Program-made: the position numbers and the translations under genes | Source: Eubacteriales bacterium | GTDB taxonomy: Bacteria > Bacillota > Clostridia > Oscillospirales > CAG-272 | Assembly (NCBI GenBank): GCA_045588675.1 | Contig: JAZNER010000046.1 | Coordinates: 108,550 to 172,549 of the forward strand | DNA: 64,000 nt | Direction of reading: 5' to 3' | Part shown: positions 32,069-39,258 of the stretch, piece by piece | Numbering within the stretch: position 1 is the stretch's first letter | Layout: each line of letters begins with the position of its first letter | The notes under the pieces: model-generated | Told to the model about the DNA's origin: nothing | Databases searched by the model: none | Seen by the model: the letters and a program-made list of their open reading frames with translations, nothing else

Positions 32069-33787
32069 ATGAATAAATTACCAAACAGAAAAAGAATAGA
32101 CAGAACACTGCCGCGCCTGTGGGATGTGAACGACTTGCTTGAGCATATTAATTCTCACGGAGATAGACTTGCTTATAAGTATTTTGAGCAGGGCAAGCTT
32201 CAGGAGATGACATATGCAGAGTTTTATCAAATGGTGCTTCAGATATCCGCAGCTTTTACAAAGAAGGGCTTTTCAGGCAAAAGAGTGGCGGTAATCGGTG
32301 ACACCTCGCCGCAATGGCTTGCCACCTATGTAGGTGCGCTTGCTTCCGGAACTATTATCATACCTATGGATAAGGAGCTGGCTCTCTCTGAAATTGAAAA
32401 GTTTTTAGAGATAGCAGAGGCAGAGGCTGTTGTTTACTCAAAATCGTTTAACGAAAAATTTGTTACAACAATAAATTCTCACCCTACGGTTAAAACCTTT
32501 ATTCCAATCAATGCAGATTATGACTCAAGCTTTTCTCAAAAGGTTCTTCCCTTTGCTTCCTTGCTTGAATTAGGCCAAGAGGAGCTTGACGGTGGATATA
32601 GAATTCAAATGGTTAAAAACCGTGACGAGATGGCTGAGATGCTATTTACGTCAGGTACGACAGGCACAAGCAAATGTGTAATGCTATCGCAAAAGAATAT
32701 TTTTGCTGCGGTAAGCTCTGCGATTGAAACTGTCTGCTTTGTTTCTGAGGATGTTGTTGTATCGGTTCTTCCCGTGCATCACACCTATGAGCTGATGTGC
32801 CTGCTTGCCGAAATGGTGTTCGGTATTACCACCTGCATCAATGACTCTTTGCGCCACGTTATGAAAAACTTTGCATTGTTTAAGCCTACAGGACTTGTTC
32901 TCGTGCCTATGTTCTTGAACACTATGTATAAGAGAATTTGGTCTGAGGCTGAGAGGGGCGGCAAGGATAAGGTGCTTAAAGCCGCTCTTGTAATGTCAAG
33001 AAATTTGATGAAGGTCGGCGTTGATGTAAGAAGAACTCTCTTTAAATCTGTTCTCGACGCATTTGGCGGAAATCTTGACCACATAATTTGCGGCGGAGCT
33101 AAATTGAATCCAGATTTGATTGTTGCATTCGAGGATTTCGGCATTTCCGTGTTTGAGGGCTTTGGTATTACAGAGTGCTCACCGCTTGTTTCGGTTACGC
33201 CTTATTATGCAAGAAAGCTGGGCGCAATCGGTCCGTCAGTTCCCTCTTGCAGAACGAGGATAGACCCTAATGGCGAATTTACCGATGAAGGCTACGAAAT
33301 TGGTGAAATTCAAGTTAAGGGTGACAATGTTATGATTGGATATTATAACAATCCCGAAGCCAATGCAGATGTATTCACAAATGACGGGTGGTTCAGAACT
33401 GGGGATGTCGGATATATGGATAATGACGGTTATTTGTATATTACGGGTCGCATTAAGTTTGTAATAGTGCTTGAAAACGGAAAAAATGTATTCCCCGAAG
33501 AAATTGAAGAATACCTTGATATAATTGATACAATTAAGGAATGCTGTGTTGTCGGAAGAAAGGCAAGTGATGGCGACGAGATTATTTTGACTGCCGTTGT
33601 TTATCCCGATTACTCAAAATTCCCTGAGGGCGCCAATGAGGACGAGGTAAAGGAATCAATCAGAAAATCTATAAACGCCACAAACAAAAAGCTCCCAACC
33701 TACAAGCAAATAAAGTCGGTTGAAATCAGAAAGACAGAGTTTGAAAAAACTACTACAAAGAAAATCAAAAGACAGCTTGTAAAATGA
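32069..33787 (+). CDS. AMP-dependent long-chain acyl-CoA synthetase/ligase
   Basis: AMP-binding motifs LFTSGTTGTSKCVMLS and GWFRTGDVGYMD. 572 aa. Confidence 0.85.
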   Translation: MNKLPNRKRIDRTLPRLWDVNDLLEHINSHGDRLAYKYFEQGKLQEMTYAEFYQMVLQISAAFTKKGFSGKRVAVIGDTSPQWLATYVGALASGTIIIPMDKELALSEIEKFLEIAEAEAVVYSKSFNEKFVTTINSHPTVKTFIPINADYDSSFSQKVLPFASLLELGQEELDGGYRIQMVKNRDEMAEMLFTSGTTGTSKCVMLSQKNIFAAVSSAIETVCFVSEDVVVSVLPVHHTYELMCLLAEMVFGITTCINDSLRHVMKNFALFKPTGLVLVPMFLNTMYKRIWSEAERGGKDKVLKAALVMSRNLMKVGVDVRRTLFKSVLDAFGGNLDHIICGGAKLNPDLIVAFEDFGISVFEGFGITECSPLVSVTPYYARKLGAIGPSVPSCRTRIDPNGEFTDEGYEIGEIQVKGDNVMIGYYNNPEANADVFTNDGWFRTGDVGYMDNDGYLYITGRIKFVIVLENGKNVFPEEIEEYLDIIDTIKECCVVGRKASDGDEIILTAVVYPDYSKFPEGANEDEVKESIRKSINATNKKLPTYKQIKSVEIRKTEFEKTTTKKIKRQLVK

Positions 33788-33789
33788 TA

Positions 33790-34138
33790 AAAAAACTTGC
33801 TCACCTGTGCTGCGGGTGCTAAAGGACAGTAATAAAGCCGATATGGATTAAACATCTGTATCGGCTCTTTTCTATTACACCGCTAATAGTGGTGAGTAAG
33901 TGCGCTTTTTAAGTTTTTAGTGATATGCTGTCTATGACAGCGTGATATTACTCGCCCTGCTCGTAGTGATATTGAAACCTTGCGGTTTCAGTGGTATTCT
34001 ATTCGCACGACAACTCGCGTAGCGAATATCACTCGGCGTAAGCTGAATATAACTGCGAAGCAATATAACTCGCCAGAGGCGAATAGAGTTGGCGTTGTGT
34101 CCTTTGGAACACAACGCCTGAGGGTGAGCAAGTTTTTT
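33790..34138. repeat. structured intergenic element A (inverted-repeat bracketed, 9-mer/mini-hairpin array)
   Basis: A 16-nt perfect inverted repeat (IR): 33790-33805 / 34123-34138. AGTGRTATK at 33919, 33941, 33965 and 33990. AATATMACT at 34025, 34046 and 34062. Spacers form small hairpins. Terminal hairpin at 34091-34118. Confidence 0.85.
33836..33871 (+). terminator. intrinsic terminator after the acyl-CoA ligase gene
   Basis: Stem agccgata / tatcggct followed by cttttc. Confidence 0.7.
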
Positions 34139-34355
34139 ACTATAGTGTTTCGCTGGATCTTTTAGTTGTTAATATTGCAAGTTGCATTATAAAAAAAATT
34201 ATTCAAATTATTAATATTTTTTATGTTTTTATGCACTTTTTTATAAAAATTTAATGTTTGCACTTGTATTTTGGAAGAATTTGTGTTATCATTATATGAA
34301 TAGATATTTAGGGCTATAATTTAAAGGTTAGCAATTTGAAAGGAATATTCAATTT

Positions 34356-36299
34356 ATGAAAGACGGATATATCAAGGTTGCATCAGCGTGTCCTGAAATT
34401 AAAATGGCAGATGTTAAATTCAATACAGACGCTTGTATTTCCTTGGCAAATCGCGCAAACGAGTTGGGCGTTAAGCTTCTGGTTTTCCCTGAGCTTGTTC
34501 TGACAGGCTATTCCTGCGGAGATATGTTTTCGTCAGAAAGCCTGCTTAAAGGTGCTCTTACGGGTCTTAAAAATTATGTTTATGCTACTGCTATGCTTGA
34601 TATGGTTTCGATAATTGGATTGCCAATTGAGCACGGTGACAAGGTCTATAACTGCGCGGCTGTCGTATCGGGCGGTCAGCTTCTCGGAATAGTACCAAAG
34701 AAAAATCTTCCTAATCAGGGCGAATATTATGAGCTTCGCAATTTTATTCCTGCGCCAAAGGACAATTTTGCTTATAGCTTTGACGACAGTATCGTTATGT
34801 TTGGCACAAATCAGTTCTTCGTTTGCAGACAAATGCCAAGCTTTAGGATAGGTGTTGAAATTTGTGAGGATCTGTGGTCTTCTGACGCTCCATCTTCAAT
34901 TCTTGCTTCTGCTGGAGCTACGGTTATTGCAAACCCCTCGGCTTCAAGTGAGATTATCGGCAAAGAGGATTACAGAAAAATGTTAATCCGCACGCAATCA
35001 TTAAAGACTATTTCGGGGTATGTTTATACAAGCTCGGGACTTGGAGAATCAACTGCAAATTCGGTTCTTTCGGGACATTGTATAATCGCAGAAATGGGTA
35101 CTATCATCGGTGAGAGAAAGCCTTTTGATTTTTCTGCAGATGAGCTTACGATTACCGAGCTTGATTTGCAGAAAATCGTCCACGCTCGCCGCACAAACAA
35201 TACATTTACAAAAAACACAAACGGAATTGAATTTTGCGAGATTGAATTTGATTTAAGTCTTGAAGATACAATTATTACAAGAAAAATTGACCCATCTCCC
35301 TTTGTTCCAACAGACAAAAAGGAACTTGCAGACAGATGTGAAAAAATCCTTAATATACAAGCATTAGGTCTTGCAGAGAGAGTTAAGGCGTCGTATTCAG
35401 GAAAGCTTGTTGTTGGTATTTCGGGCGGACTTGATTCTTGCCTTGCGCTTCTTGTAATGGTGCGAGCTGCCGATTATCTCAATATTCCAAGAAAAGATAT
35501 AATTGCAGTTACAATGCCCTGCTTTGGAACAACTTCGAGGACAAAAAACAATGCAACTGTTCTTTGTGAAAAGCTTGGTGTTGATTTCCGTTGTGTTAAC
35601 ATTTTTGATGCGGTAAGACAGCATTTTGCTGATATTGGTCACGACCCTGAAAACTATAATGTTGTATATGAGAATGCTCAGGCGAGAGAAAGAACACAGG
35701 TCCTTATGGATATAGCCAACGCCGAGAGCGGTCTTGTTGTCGGAACTGGTGACCTTTCCGAGCTTGCACTTGGTTGGGCGACCTATAACGGCGACCATAT
35801 GTCAATGTACGGCGTTAATGCTTCAGTTCCCAAAACGCTTATCAGACATATTGTAAGCTATTGCGCTGATTTGGAAAAATCAAAGGGTGAGGAGCTTTTG
35901 GCAGATGCTATTTATGACATTCTCAATACTCCTGTTTCACCCGAATTACTCCCTGCCACAGAGGGCGGTGAGATTTCTCAAAAAACAGAGGATTTGGTTG
36001 GTCCTTATGAGCTTCACGATTTCTACCTTTTCAATTTTGTAAAGCACGGATTTACTCCTAAAAAGCTTTTCAGAATGGCAAAAATAGCCTTTAACGGCAT
36101 ATATGATGAAAAAACACTCTTAAAGTGGCTCGAAGTATTTGTAAAGAGGTTTTTTGCTCAACAGTTTAAGCGCTCGTGTCTGCCCGACAGTCCGCGCGTT
36201 GGAACGGTAGCGCTTTCCCCGAATTATTTTAAGATGGTTTCGGATATGTCATCAAACTTGTGGCGAGCGGAAATCGAAGAGCTTAAAGAATTAATTTAA
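34356..36299 (+). CDS. nadE: glutamine-dependent NAD+ synthetase
   Basis: 647 aa. N-terminal CN-hydrolase (FPELVLTGY, EICEDLW) plus a C-terminal NAD synthetase PP-loop (GISGGLDS). Confidence 0.9.
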   Translation: MKDGYIKVASACPEIKMADVKFNTDACISLANRANELGVKLLVFPELVLTGYSCGDMFSSESLLKGALTGLKNYVYATAMLDMVSIIGLPIEHGDKVYNCAAVVSGGQLLGIVPKKNLPNQGEYYELRNFIPAPKDNFAYSFDDSIVMFGTNQFFVCRQMPSFRIGVEICEDLWSSDAPSSILASAGATVIANPSASSEIIGKEDYRKMLIRTQSLKTISGYVYTSSGLGESTANSVLSGHCIIAEMGTIIGERKPFDFSADELTITELDLQKIVHARRTNNTFTKNTNGIEFCEIEFDLSLEDTIITRKIDPSPFVPTDKKELADRCEKILNIQALGLAERVKASYSGKLVVGISGGLDSCLALLVMVRAADYLNIPRKDIIAVTMPCFGTTSRTKNNATVLCEKLGVDFRCVNIFDAVRQHFADIGHDPENYNVVYENAQARERTQVLMDIANAESGLVVGTGDLSELALGWATYNGDHMSMYGVNASVPKTLIRHIVSYCADLEKSKGEELLADAIYDILNTPVSPELLPATEGGEISQKTEDLVGPYELHDFYLFNFVKHGFTPKKLFRMAKIAFNGIYDEKTLLKWLEVFVKRFFAQQFKRSCLPDSPRVGTVALSPNYFKMVSDMSSNLWRAEIEELKELI

Positions 36300-36999: not shown

Positions 37000-37078
37000 T
37001 ACAGAATAGACAGACTGTAATATTTGAATAATCCAAAACAAAAAAGAGCTATCTTAAGATAACTCTTTTGATTGATTT

Positions 37079-37353
37079 TGTGCTCATAGTACCAAAATAC
37101 AACTCGTATATTTAGTGAAGTTTTGGCTACGCCAAAGTGATGTTATGCTTCGCATAGTGATGTTGCTCCCTACGGTCGCAGTGAAGTGATATGTTCCTAA
37201 TTTCGTGCCAAAGGCACACTTCACGCGCGAATCGCACTCCACTTCCGAAGGAAACATCACGCTCCGTTTGCGGAACGCATCGTTGAAAAAAGCACTTGCG
37301 CAAGCAAGTGCTTTTTTCTGTGCTCATAGTACAAAAATGCAACTTTATGTATT
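37079..37353. repeat. structured intergenic element B flanked by imperfect direct repeats 240 nt apart
   Basis: tgtgctcatagtac.aaaat.caact at 37079 and 37319. AGTGAWGT at 37114, 37136, 37156 and 37180. Reverse complements at 37218, 37236 and 37254. Mini-hairpins lie between them. Terminator at 37286-37317. Confidence 0.85.
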
Positions 37354-38048: not shown

Positions 38049-38510
38049 TCAAAAGTCAAATATCGCTGACGGTATATCTAACCAAATGAAAATGATTGAC
38101 AATAATACATAAACCGCATTTACAATTAATACTCTTCTCTTTTCTTGCTTATCTGCCAATTTATCTGCGCTTATAACTAATGAAACTATTATGGCAGCTA
38201 TTCCAGGAATTAATGTCAACGAGGCCTTATAATCTCTATGAATTCCGAAAACTTTAGTATTATCTAGCAAATTATCATAGTAAATATATTCGCTCTGCAT
38301 AGAAATCCTAATTATTAAAGAAATAAAAGCACTGATAACACTAGCAATATAAGATTTTTTCAAACAAGGTTTGTACGCCTTATTTGTATCTGATATAGCA
38401 AGCTCCTCATTATCAATTTCTTCAACACCTTCTCTTCCAATTTGGCATCCACACTTTTCGCAAAACATTGCTTCATCGTTAATTTCTTTTCCACATTTTG
38501 AACAAAACAT
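38049..38510 (-). CDS. zinc-ribbon domain membrane protein
   Basis: N-terminal CSKCG..CEKCG zinc ribbon followed by 3 TM helices. RBS aggaga. Confidence 0.7.
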   Translation of the reverse strand: MFCSKCGKEINDEAMFCEKCGCQIGREGVEEIDNEELAISDTNKAYKPCLKKSYIASVISAFISLIIRISMQSEYIYYDNLLDNTKVFGIHRDYKASLTLIPGIAAIIVSLVISADKLADKQEKRRVLIVNAVYVLLSIIFIWLDIPSAIFDF

Positions 38511-38534: not shown

Positions 38535-38579
38535 TTGTAACAAATTGTTACAAATAATATTGTAACACAATGTTACAAT
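38535..38579. promoter_or_regulatory. two palindromic operator-like sites TTGTAACA-N3-TGTTACAA
   Basis: ttgtaacaaattgttacaa (38535-38553) and attgtaacacaatgttacaat (38559-38579), in the divergent intergenic region next to the XRE gene. Confidence 0.7.
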
Positions 38580-38619
38580 AAAGTCAAGAGGTTTACATAA
38601 TTTTATTAGGAGGAATTTT

Positions 38620-38841
38620 ATGAAAGCAAACCAAGGGCTTCTCGGATTAAGAATTGTCAGGACGAAAAAACAATACAGCCAATTAAAAGTAGCCATGGAT
38701 TTGAATATAAGCCGAGAAGCACTTTCTTATTACGAAACCGGAAAAAGAAATCCCGACCTGCAAATGCTTCGACAATTATCAAAATATTTTAATGTCTCTA
38801 TTGATTTTTTGGTAAACGGGAAAGAATTTCAAGAAAAATAA
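38620..38841 (+). CDS. XRE-family HTH protein (73 aa)
   Basis: LRIVRTKKQYSQLKVAMDLNISREALSYYETGKRNP. RBS aggagga. Confidence 0.8.
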   Translation: MKANQGLLGLRIVRTKKQYSQLKVAMDLNISREALSYYETGKRNPDLQMLRQLSKYFNVSIDFLVNGKEFQEK

Positions 38842-38879
38842 GAGCCAAATATACTGCTACAAGGAGTTAAGTAATTCAC

Positions 38880-39151
38880 AACGACTATGCGACTGCTACG
38901 GGACTGTGCCTGCGATAGTTTGCAATAAAATCCTATGCAGTCATACTTACTTCCTAAAATATAGTCGTTTTGAAACAAATCACGCCATAGGCGTGTATGG
39001 AATCCGCAACATGTTGCGGTATGGAATCATCACGAGATGATGTATAGAATCAATCCGAAGGTAGATATACGCTGACGCGTGATGCCATACGCCTGCGACA
39101 ATTCCATACTCACTTACGCGAGATTACATGCCAATCCTTCGGATTGAATAG
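38880..39151. repeat. structured intergenic element C (two domains; 9-mer/mini-hairpin array)
   Basis: Domain 1 is closed by aacgactat (38880) / atagtcgtt (38961). Domain 2 has GTATRGAAT at 38995, 39019 and 39042, and reverse complements at 39082, 39100 and 39123. Hairpins cacgcc/ggcgtg, ccgcaa/ttgcgg, atcatc/gatgat, caatcc/ggattg. Confidence 0.85.
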
Positions 39152-39181
39152 AAAAAAGACCGTCCGAAAACGGTCTTTTTT
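39152..39181. terminator. bidirectional intrinsic terminator (ends the tRNA transcript on the minus strand)
   Basis: aaaaaagaccgt-ccgaaa-acggtctttttt. Confidence 0.9.
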
Positions 39182-39183
39182 CT

Positions 39184-39258
39184 TGGCACCCCCAACGGGA
39201 ATCGAACCCATAACTAACCCTTAGGAGGGGCTTGTTATATCCATTTAACTATGGAGGC
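39184..39258 (-). tRNA. tRNA-Arg (anticodon CCU), CCA encoded
   Basis: Manual cloverleaf, 75 nt. Acceptor GCCUCCA/UGGGGGU, D stem GUUA/UAAC, anticodon stem AGCCC/GGGUU with loop CU-CCU-AA, T arm AUGGG-UUCGAUU-CCCGU, discriminator G, 3' CCA. Confidence 0.9.

Follow-up and report, generated by a model that had tools for sequence, protein, structure and literature searches.

A divergent, two-armed member of the Gut-1 family between an acyl-CoA ligase gene and nadE in a clostridial genome

What is the compact array of short repeats and hairpins that separates two + strand genes, one for an AMP-binding acyl-CoA ligase (32069-33787) and one for NadE (34356-36299), and in which molecular form would it act? 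The array, 350 nt long and called element A here, lies in a stretch of 64,000 nucleotides from an Eubacteriales bacterium (assembly GCA_045588675.1, contig JAZNER010000046.1, positions 108,550 to 172,549), the whole of which is referred to as the window and provides all coordinates. Although the element had not been recognised as any named RNA or repeat family, both of its arms match Gut-1 (RF01706). Under the Rfam covariance models, run permissively, 34021-34091 scores 42.1 bits on the - strand and 33906-33977 scores 23.8 bits on the + strand, both short of the Gut-1 gathering score of 50 bits. In a sample of 20 related loci, 14 Gut-1 matches exceed this score (51-64 bits), and they fall on right arms and on one-armed arrays; the window's own subfamily, class I (loci L049, L088, L105, L109 and L113), scores 40-54 bits. 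Because relatives with the same architecture pass the gathering score, element A can be placed as a divergent, two-armed copy of a known family, at the fringe of it by score and homologous to it by alignment. The features of Gut-1 are there: at least three tandem hairpins, a conserved GUGAWAU linker and covarying stems. Gut-1 has been known only as a human-gut metagenome motif without a known organism (Weinberg et al. 2010, PMC2864571), and no literature on it was found beyond that paper. In the seed alignment (Stockholm file, Weinberg 2010, PMC2864571), the two-armed layout is visible in the flanks, with GUGAUAU variants of identical layout. In BAAZ01000095.1, for instance, an outer inverted repeat is accompanied by four GUGAUAUU-plus-hairpin units, which four AUAUCAC units follow (seed file, PMC2864571).

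All of the building blocks first reported for element A are present where they had been placed, with one deviation in detail. The 16-nt inverted repeat that brackets it is perfect and occurs nowhere else in the window, and its left half, AAAAAACTTGCTCACC, begins 3 nt beyond the end of the ligase stop codon (33787). Four direct copies of AGTGRTATK had been read in the left arm; the heptamer core is found at all four places, while the second nonamer, CGTGATATT, lies outside the pattern. The three complement copies, AATATCACT or AATATAACT, stand at 34025, 34046 and 34062 as reported, the spacers are indeed flush hairpins (GCTGTC-TAT-GACAGC, TGAAACC-TTGC-GGTTTCA, TCGGC-GTAA-GCTGA and TCGCC-AGA-GGCGA), and the stem of the closing hairpin is perfect. 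Three things had been overlooked, namely a fourth hairpin of the right half, TCGC-GTA-GCGA, the nature of ATAGAGT (34083), an apparent fourth complement that is one strand of a long-range helix (33998-34006 / 34079-34087), and two sister elements further along the window (Table 1). The features of element A are not attributable to chance. Across the window, AGTGRTATK is found 9 times against 2.15 expected, a count equalled by 0/100 shuffles, and four of the nine copies lie within the element. Folding, which the original prediction had proposed for both strands, gives energies of -141.4 kcal/mol (z = -9.5) and -125.4 kcal/mol (z = -8.0), each far more stable than the shuffled controls.

Related copies in other genomes, for which a search had been suggested, are numerous. 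A scan of a genome collection for three spaced GTGATAT copies returned at least 120 loci; among the matches listed, nearly all are metagenome-assembled genomes (MAGs) of gut or rumen clostridia, the hosts include Oscillospiraceae, Acutalibacteraceae, Christensenellaceae, Ruminococcus and "Eubacteriales", and about half of the arrays have complement copies downstream. The window's spacing (~22-25 / ~35 / 21, 16, 20) is kept in ~65 genome loci and 42 metagenome loci. Altogether, ~160 related loci of gut and rumen Clostridia follow one common plan, in which four units of GTGATAT plus a short perfect hairpin are followed by a domain that is closed by a covarying 9-bp long-range helix and holds three to four inverted units, a strong hairpin coming last. 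This last hairpin, of 10-14 bp, is present in every family member with a class-specific sequence. Two samples were drawn from these loci. The search pattern forced GTGATAT in the left arm of the first (40 aligned elements), and a second was therefore anchored on the right-hand domain alone in metagenome loci, yielding 42 parsed unique elements. In this right-anchored sample, GTGATAT is the commonest heptamer at every left-arm position from R1 to R4 (27-35 of 42), so the conservation of the motif is real. The heptamers and the right-hand domain are conserved, and hairpin sequences differ between units and between copies, even within a single MAG (L032 vs L049). One-armed arrays also exist; they adjoin terminators or sit in 5′ leaders.

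Compensatory change among the 40 aligned elements bears out the proposal that the mini-hairpins form as single-strand structures. The hairpin set is 84.4% paired, compared with 30-48% in slid controls, with 256 doubly compensated cells, and the observed values are reached by 0/500 shuffles. The helix 33998-34006 / 34079-34087 is 98.1% paired, matched again by 0/500 shuffles, and its pair 33999:34086 covaries (A-U 16, U-A 13, C-G 10). An all-against-all covariation scan recovers the hairpins and this helix, and no other long-range pair. Because the long-range helix covaries, the right half can be regarded as several hairpins enclosed in one domain, and what resembles a fourth complement as a helix strand. 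Hairpin H3′ of this domain is an alternative to the helix and competes with it.

Where the element ends, and in what it is lodged, emerges from the comparison of class-I members. Their interiors are conserved from GGGTGCTAAAGGACAG to GGAACACAACGCC, and their outer stems and flanking genes are unrelated; the outer stems differ completely in sequence, yet each is preceded by an A-run and followed by a T-run. Since outer stems differ while interiors match, the 16-nt inverted repeat is locus-specific and, contrary to its description as the bracket of the element, lies outside the conserved unit, which spans about 33814-34118. The outer repeat has a GC-rich stem whose right half, GGTGAGCAAG, runs into TTTTTT, and it stands just past a stop codon, at the very place where related genomes have a plain terminator. 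Judged by these features, it is most likely the putative terminator stem of the acyl-CoA ligase gene, with element A in its 317-nt "loop". The apical part of the right-hand hairpin (34098-34110) carries the complement of the conserved unit's left terminal segment; this segment could form a terminal inverted repeat or take part in long-range pairing. At the position of GGGTGCTAAAGGACAG, L105 has a 21-nt terminal inverted repeat, and class II has an analogous pair, CTTAACGGAG / CTCCGTTAAG. Terminal inverted repeats thus measure ~15-21 nt in L105 and class II and are degenerate in the window (33816-33828 vs 34098-34110).

Presence/absence polymorphism of the kind seen for miniature inverted-repeat transposable elements had been put forward, and it is found. 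No record matched the window's ligase or NadE protein exactly, and homologues were used for the comparison. Four related genomes with ligases 82-84% identical share the ligase-nadE order and are devoid of element A; their intergenic regions measure 110-146 nt, with a plain terminator and the nadE promoter, compared with 568 nt in the window. Alleles at an esterase site show such polymorphism as well. L246-L250 share with L049 a 100% identical esterase gene and a common half-stem, AAAAAAATGCAGCCCGATGG, after which at least three different sequences follow and metagenome contigs end; the esterase 3′ flank is a hypervariable, repeat-rich terminator hotspot. In a 90% relative (L251-L253), the element's internal terminator module, AAAGCCGATA...TATCGGCTCTTTT (33836-33876 in the window), stands alone as the sole terminator of the esterase gene, which fits a mosaic composed of separable modules. 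Duplication is observed too: L051 carries two near-identical cores 2.7 kb apart on one contig with different flanks, and L086 two near-identical one-armed copies, terminator included. Gene ends are the usual setting of the family, since, of 26 elements for which both neighbours were called, 25 face the 3′ end of one gene or more (as judged with crude open reading frame proxies), and a tRNA gene adjoins 9/40 aligned elements, its terminator abutting the right end of the element. Integration at tRNA genes with duplication of an att site was considered and rejected, the T-arm-like left flank being an inverted rather than a direct copy and confined to one class.

The base pairs and loops of the hairpins bear on the strand and the nucleic acid concerned. 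Covarying RNA stems normally contain several percent G:U and far fewer A:C. A census of 289 distinct spacer hairpins (1705 stem positions) comprises 1637 Watson-Crick pairs, 15 G:T and 22 A:C, i.e., ~1% of each mismatch, and an attempt to deduce the transcribed strand from an asymmetry between G:U and A:C was abandoned, this asymmetry being absent. Loops of 3 nt (154/289) and 4 nt (110/289) prevail. On the strand opposite to the Rfam orientation, 153/289 hairpins have G..A loops, 145 of them closed by C:G, against 5/289 on the Rfam strand; 63 of the G..A loops are GNRA-type tetraloops. The dominant forms on that opposite strand are C-GNA-G and C-GNNA-G. They fit the rule of the extraordinarily stable DNA mini-hairpins d(GCGNAGC) and d(GCGNNAGC), whose RNA versions are much weaker, r(GCGAAAGC) having a melting temperature of 39 C (PMC13037366). 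Hairpin H2′ is nearly invariant as GC-GNA-GC among the 40 aligned elements and reads literally GCGAAGC in the window. Because the loop-favoured strand flips between the arms, no single transcript would have favoured loops in both. Altogether, the stem and loop statistics lean towards a single-stranded DNA (ssDNA) form.

These findings lead us to a tentative model, to which we give slightly less than an even chance, in which element A, as a mosaic repeat of the Gut-1 family, resembles REP/BIME sequences, is lodged in the ligase terminator, works as a folded single strand with its heptamers as recognition sites and probably propagates at the DNA level. Gut and rumen Clostridia have many copies of this non-coding repeat, site-polymorphic between genomes, and element A is one of them; its conserved unit sits in the loop of a putative ligase terminator stem. 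Its mosaic order runs from the terminal segment through a terminator-like hairpin, the four GTGATAT-hairpin units and the closed inverted domain to the terminal hairpin. The hairpins would serve as scaffolds, leaving the heptamers unpaired between them as repeated recognition sites for a trans-acting factor, and copying around the genome would proceed via single-stranded hairpin DNA with an enzyme encoded elsewhere. Lodged in a terminator, the element would be transcribed as a highly structured 3′ end, possibly with side-effects on termination or mRNA stability. In line with the REP/BIME comparison, motif-flanked extragenic palindromes cluster in both orientations at gene 3′ ends. Many near-identical palindromes per genome, the other hallmark, are not seen, near-identical duplicates being occasional (L051 and L086).

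Several points weigh against this model. Hairpin sequences vary between units and copies, whereas the copies of a classical REP in one genome are nearly identical. A helix that closes a junction and GNNA tetraloops are equally typical of RNA, the scarcity of G:U could stem from the very short stems, and Gut-1 is classed as RNA by both Rfam and Weinberg 2010. Orientation relative to the upstream gene is biased about 3:1 (14 vs 4 tandem cases), which would suit a role at the RNA level; the window copy has the minority orientation. No transposase, RAYT or partner protein was found in the 64-kb window or among the neighbours of the listed loci, and clustering the open reading frames of the 120 loci listed revealed no recurring neighbour family, be it of transposases, integrases, reverse transcriptases or any other protein. 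No target-site duplication was recovered, nor was a clean empty site that has the same stem; the flanks of class-I elements are a locus-specific inverted repeat, in which no duplication was found. Furthermore, the closest ligase relatives are only ~84% identical, and the L249 allele is rearranged.

A bolder version of the ssDNA model, possible and on balance doubtful, would hold that Gut-1 is not an RNA gene at all: it would be one half, the visible one, of a new class of ssDNA-acting hairpin arrays in clostridia. Such arrays, made of C-GNA-G DNA mini-hairpins that each have a heptamer at the foot, would be functional analogues of REPINs, and an HUH-type or primase-like ssDNA enzyme would copy them into terminator loops. 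The two inverted arms would ensure that one is always exposed on the lagging-strand template.

The strongest rival, which we consider unlikely without thinking it far-fetched, is that element A is a genuine structured RNA, either a 3′ extension of the gene upstream or a small RNA (sRNA), whose linker heptamers bind several copies of one RNA-binding protein. It could act as a sponge of the CsrB/RsmZ type or as a platform for a termination or decay factor, its dispersal amounting to ordinary gain and loss of sRNA genes. The covarying hairpins and closing helix would be expected of such an RNA, as would conserved unpaired motifs between variable hairpins, seen at each of R1-R4 in the unselected sample. 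One-armed arrays adjoining terminators or occupying 5′ leaders, the orientation bias and the frequent GNNA tetraloops can be read in the same way. A sigma-70-like site (TTGAAA-17-TATTCT at 33972-34000, with TG before the -10, TGgTATTCT) also faces the right-hand domain; however, chance alone would supply ~2.8 such sites in the region, and a transcript initiated there would have its first base within the 5′ strand of the covarying helix. Divergent sRNA genes driven by a central promoter were rejected for these two reasons. G:U pairs, moreover, are nearly absent and no commoner than A:C, triloops dominate, and the H2′ stem, of 2-3 bp, would be marginal as RNA. The strand favoured by the loops runs against the Rfam orientation and changes from one arm to the other, a T-run does not directly follow most right-hand hairpins, and the three heptamers present in one genome would call for three binding specificities.

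The original prediction had pictured a rod of 8-9 bp helices, in which the direct heptamers pair with the complements of the opposite arm, in RNA or ssDNA, and the mini-hairpins branch off at four-way junctions. The arms do bear complementary motifs, as do those of two sister elements in the window (GTGAWGT / ACWTCAC and GTATGGAAT / ATTCCATAC), and the inner pair R4:R1′ is perfect in 27/42 elements of the right-anchored sample, with three compensated variants. However, arm-to-arm heptamer pairing (87.8%) is no better than in column shuffles (87.6%) and is equalled by 76/500 of them. R3:R2′ is perfect in 15/42 elements and R2:R3′ in just 6/42, with uncompensated central mismatches in most; most arm-arm variants altogether are uncompensated, and complementarity is independent of register. 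The outermost "complement" belongs to the other, covarying helix, which is the sole supported long-range pairing, one-armed arrays exist, and the minimum-free-energy fold leaves the arm-arm helices unused. The rod is thus very improbable, and the alignments argue that the arms share one motif in inverted orientation that is not maintained as helices.

Binding sites read in double-stranded DNA, i.e., iterons or operators, that serve for instance a replication initiator, a partition protein or a transcription roadblock would agree with direct and inverted motif copies about two helical turns apart, conserved in both orientations without any need to pair, and with the AT-rich stretch that follows (34140-34340), yet such an array is hardly credible, as spacing shifts by several bp among members with hairpin length, compensated hairpins, the long-range helix and strand-asymmetric loops are irrelevant to duplex DNA, the neighbours are housekeeping genes with no rep or par gene among them, plasmid matches are lacking with one partial phage match, and the AT-rich stretch is the nadE promoter region, present also in relatives without the element.

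Other candidates were tried and set aside. A phage or plasmid origin was rejected on the basis of no plasmid match and a single partial phage match (34% of the query, 75% identity); of the 120 viral pattern matches, the architecture appears in two, the rest being unrelated tandem repeats. The heptamer does not match the DnaA box, the NrdR box, the integron attC core or the k-turn / C-box.

Table 1. Parts of element A and the sister elements B and C, in window coordinates.
Feature	Coordinates	Strand	Remarks
Outer inverted repeat, left half (A-run + CTTGCTCACC)	33790..33805		Locus-specific; outside conserved unit
Left terminal conserved segment, GGGTGCTAAAGGACAG	33814..33829		Kept in window, L049 and L088
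Terminator-like hairpin module (13-bp stem, loop, then CTTTTCTATT)	33836..33876	+	Conserved in class I
Small hairpin (33878-33894), then conserved block GGTGAGTAAGTGCGCT	33878..33906		Conserved in class I; sequence of the small hairpin varies between class-I members
Left arm, heptamers R1-R4 (core GTGATAT/GTGGTAT at 33920, 33942, 33966, 33991)	33920..33997	+	Rfam Gut-1 orientation on + strand
Left-arm hairpins H1, H2 (imperfect in window), H3	33927-33941, 33949-33965, 33973-33990	+	Covariation in H1-H3
Long-range helix, 5′ strand, TCTATTCGC	33998..34006		Covarying; present in minimum-free-energy fold
Right-hand domain (heptamer complements ATATCAC/ATATAAC at 34026, 34047, 34063)	34015..34082	-	Rfam Gut-1 orientation on - strand; covariation
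Right-domain hairpins Hc, H1′, H2′ (TGCGAAGCA), H3′	34015-34025, 34033-34046, 34054-34062, 34070-34082		
Long-range helix, 3′ strand, GCGAATAGA	34079..34087		Overlaps apparent fourth complement repeat
Strong right-hand hairpin (10-bp perfect stem, 34091-34100 / 34109-34118)	34091..34118		Terminates conserved unit
Outer inverted repeat, right half (GGTGAGCAAG + T-run)	34123..34138		Locus-specific
Element B, two-armed	~37105-37320		Heptamers GTGAAGT/GTGATGT at 37115, 37137, 37157, 37181; complements ACTTCAC 37218, ACATCAC 37254; terminator end 37285-37318
Element C	~38979-39185		GTATGGAAT x3 at 38995, 39019, 39042 with hairpin spacers; complements 39081, 39101

Element A is one of three such arrays within ~5.4 kb (Table 1). 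Element B has Gut-1 matches of 34.4 and 27.3 bits on opposite strands, both sub-threshold, and is flanked by 36-nt direct repeats, 83% identical (37069-37104 / 37309-37344), which hint at an insertion or duplication event. Element C has no Gut-1 match; its perfect 12-bp closing helix (39050-39061 / 39136-39147) is placed as in element A with an unrelated sequence, and a bidirectional terminator follows (39150-39183), common to a convergent tRNA gene (39187-39258, - strand). As the three elements differ in heptamer, the plan is conserved and the heptamer is subfamily-specific within one genome. The terminator hairpin of element B, GAAAAAAGCACTTGC...GCAAGTGCTTTTTTC, recurs near-unchanged beside Gut-1-type elements in the right flanks of L012, L035 and L055, where, in other species, it is a tRNA-gene terminator. 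Because of this recurrence, terminator hairpins may themselves be shared, mobile modules. In a Butyrivibrio crossotus contig (L099, ~1960-2190), a one-armed array of five units plus GTTATGGAATATTCCAT is duplicated in tandem, and the palindrome at the array end, TGGAATATTCCA, resembles the heptamer of element C. Between the open reading frame at 38049-38510 and element C, an AT-rich region contains a further one of ~73 amino acids (38620-38842) whose translation, judged by eye, looks like an XRE-type helix-turn-helix regulator; TTGTAACA / TGTTACAA repeats lie near it, at 38537-38580.

How does element A compare with known systems? CsrB/CsrC and RsmX/Y/Z likewise carry many copies of a short motif on a variable hairpin scaffold, with several paralogues per genome. 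Their motifs, however, lie mostly in hairpin loops and have known protein partners, whereas the motif of element A is a 7-nt linker with its complement in the same element. Correia, BOX, RUP and ERIC repeats are similarly small, non-coding, multi-copy, modular, able to fold back and polymorphic by site, and they often affect transcript ends; in contrast to them, the element has no clear target-site duplication, its terminal inverted repeats are short and degenerate, its heptamer-hairpin array is without counterpart, and its position in a terminator loop is unusual. The hairpins of the phage G4 origin, ssiA and the N4 early promoters (PMC13037366) share its dominant C-GNA-G and C-GNNA-G loops, yet each of them is a lone hairpin in a phage or plasmid origin, where primase or N4 RNA polymerase recognises it, while the element is a chromosomal array with conserved linkers.

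REP, BIME and REPIN sequences are short extragenic palindromes with a conserved motif at the hairpin foot, located at gene 3′ ends in direct and inverted clusters, mosaic with other motifs, with several subfamilies per genome. Like the element, they are non-autonomous, lack target-site duplications and keep their hairpins by compensatory change. The differences are that the stems of the element are much shorter (3-9 bp, mostly 5-7), that the heptamer is conserved and the hairpin sequence is not, with 3-5 different hairpins per arm, and that no RAYT or Y1 transposase is linked to it; moreover, RAYT systems occur in Proteobacteria and the element in another phylum.

Gut-1 itself (PMC2864571) is the closest counterpart, with tandem short hairpins, GUGAWAU linkers and an origin in gut microbiomes. 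The Rfam model covers three hairpins of one arm in 77 positions, whereas the full element adds an inverted second arm, a covarying closing helix, flanking modules and insertion polymorphism, and its loop chemistry favours the strand opposite to Rfam's. Described without a sequenced organism, Gut-1 now turns up in human and ruminant guts, in many MAGs of named clostridia. Metagenome assemblies break at these elements, which can be mistaken for sRNA genes in annotation and mark hypervariable terminator regions in abundant, uncultured gut Clostridia. A motif orphaned since 2010, with no organism, no function and a 77-nt model, thereby gains named hosts, a full architecture of ~300 nt including the closing helix, evidence of movement and a terminator location, and its base-pair and loop statistics put action at the RNA level in question. 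Gut-1 thus becomes a testable choice between an ssDNA mobile element and a multivalent RNA platform.

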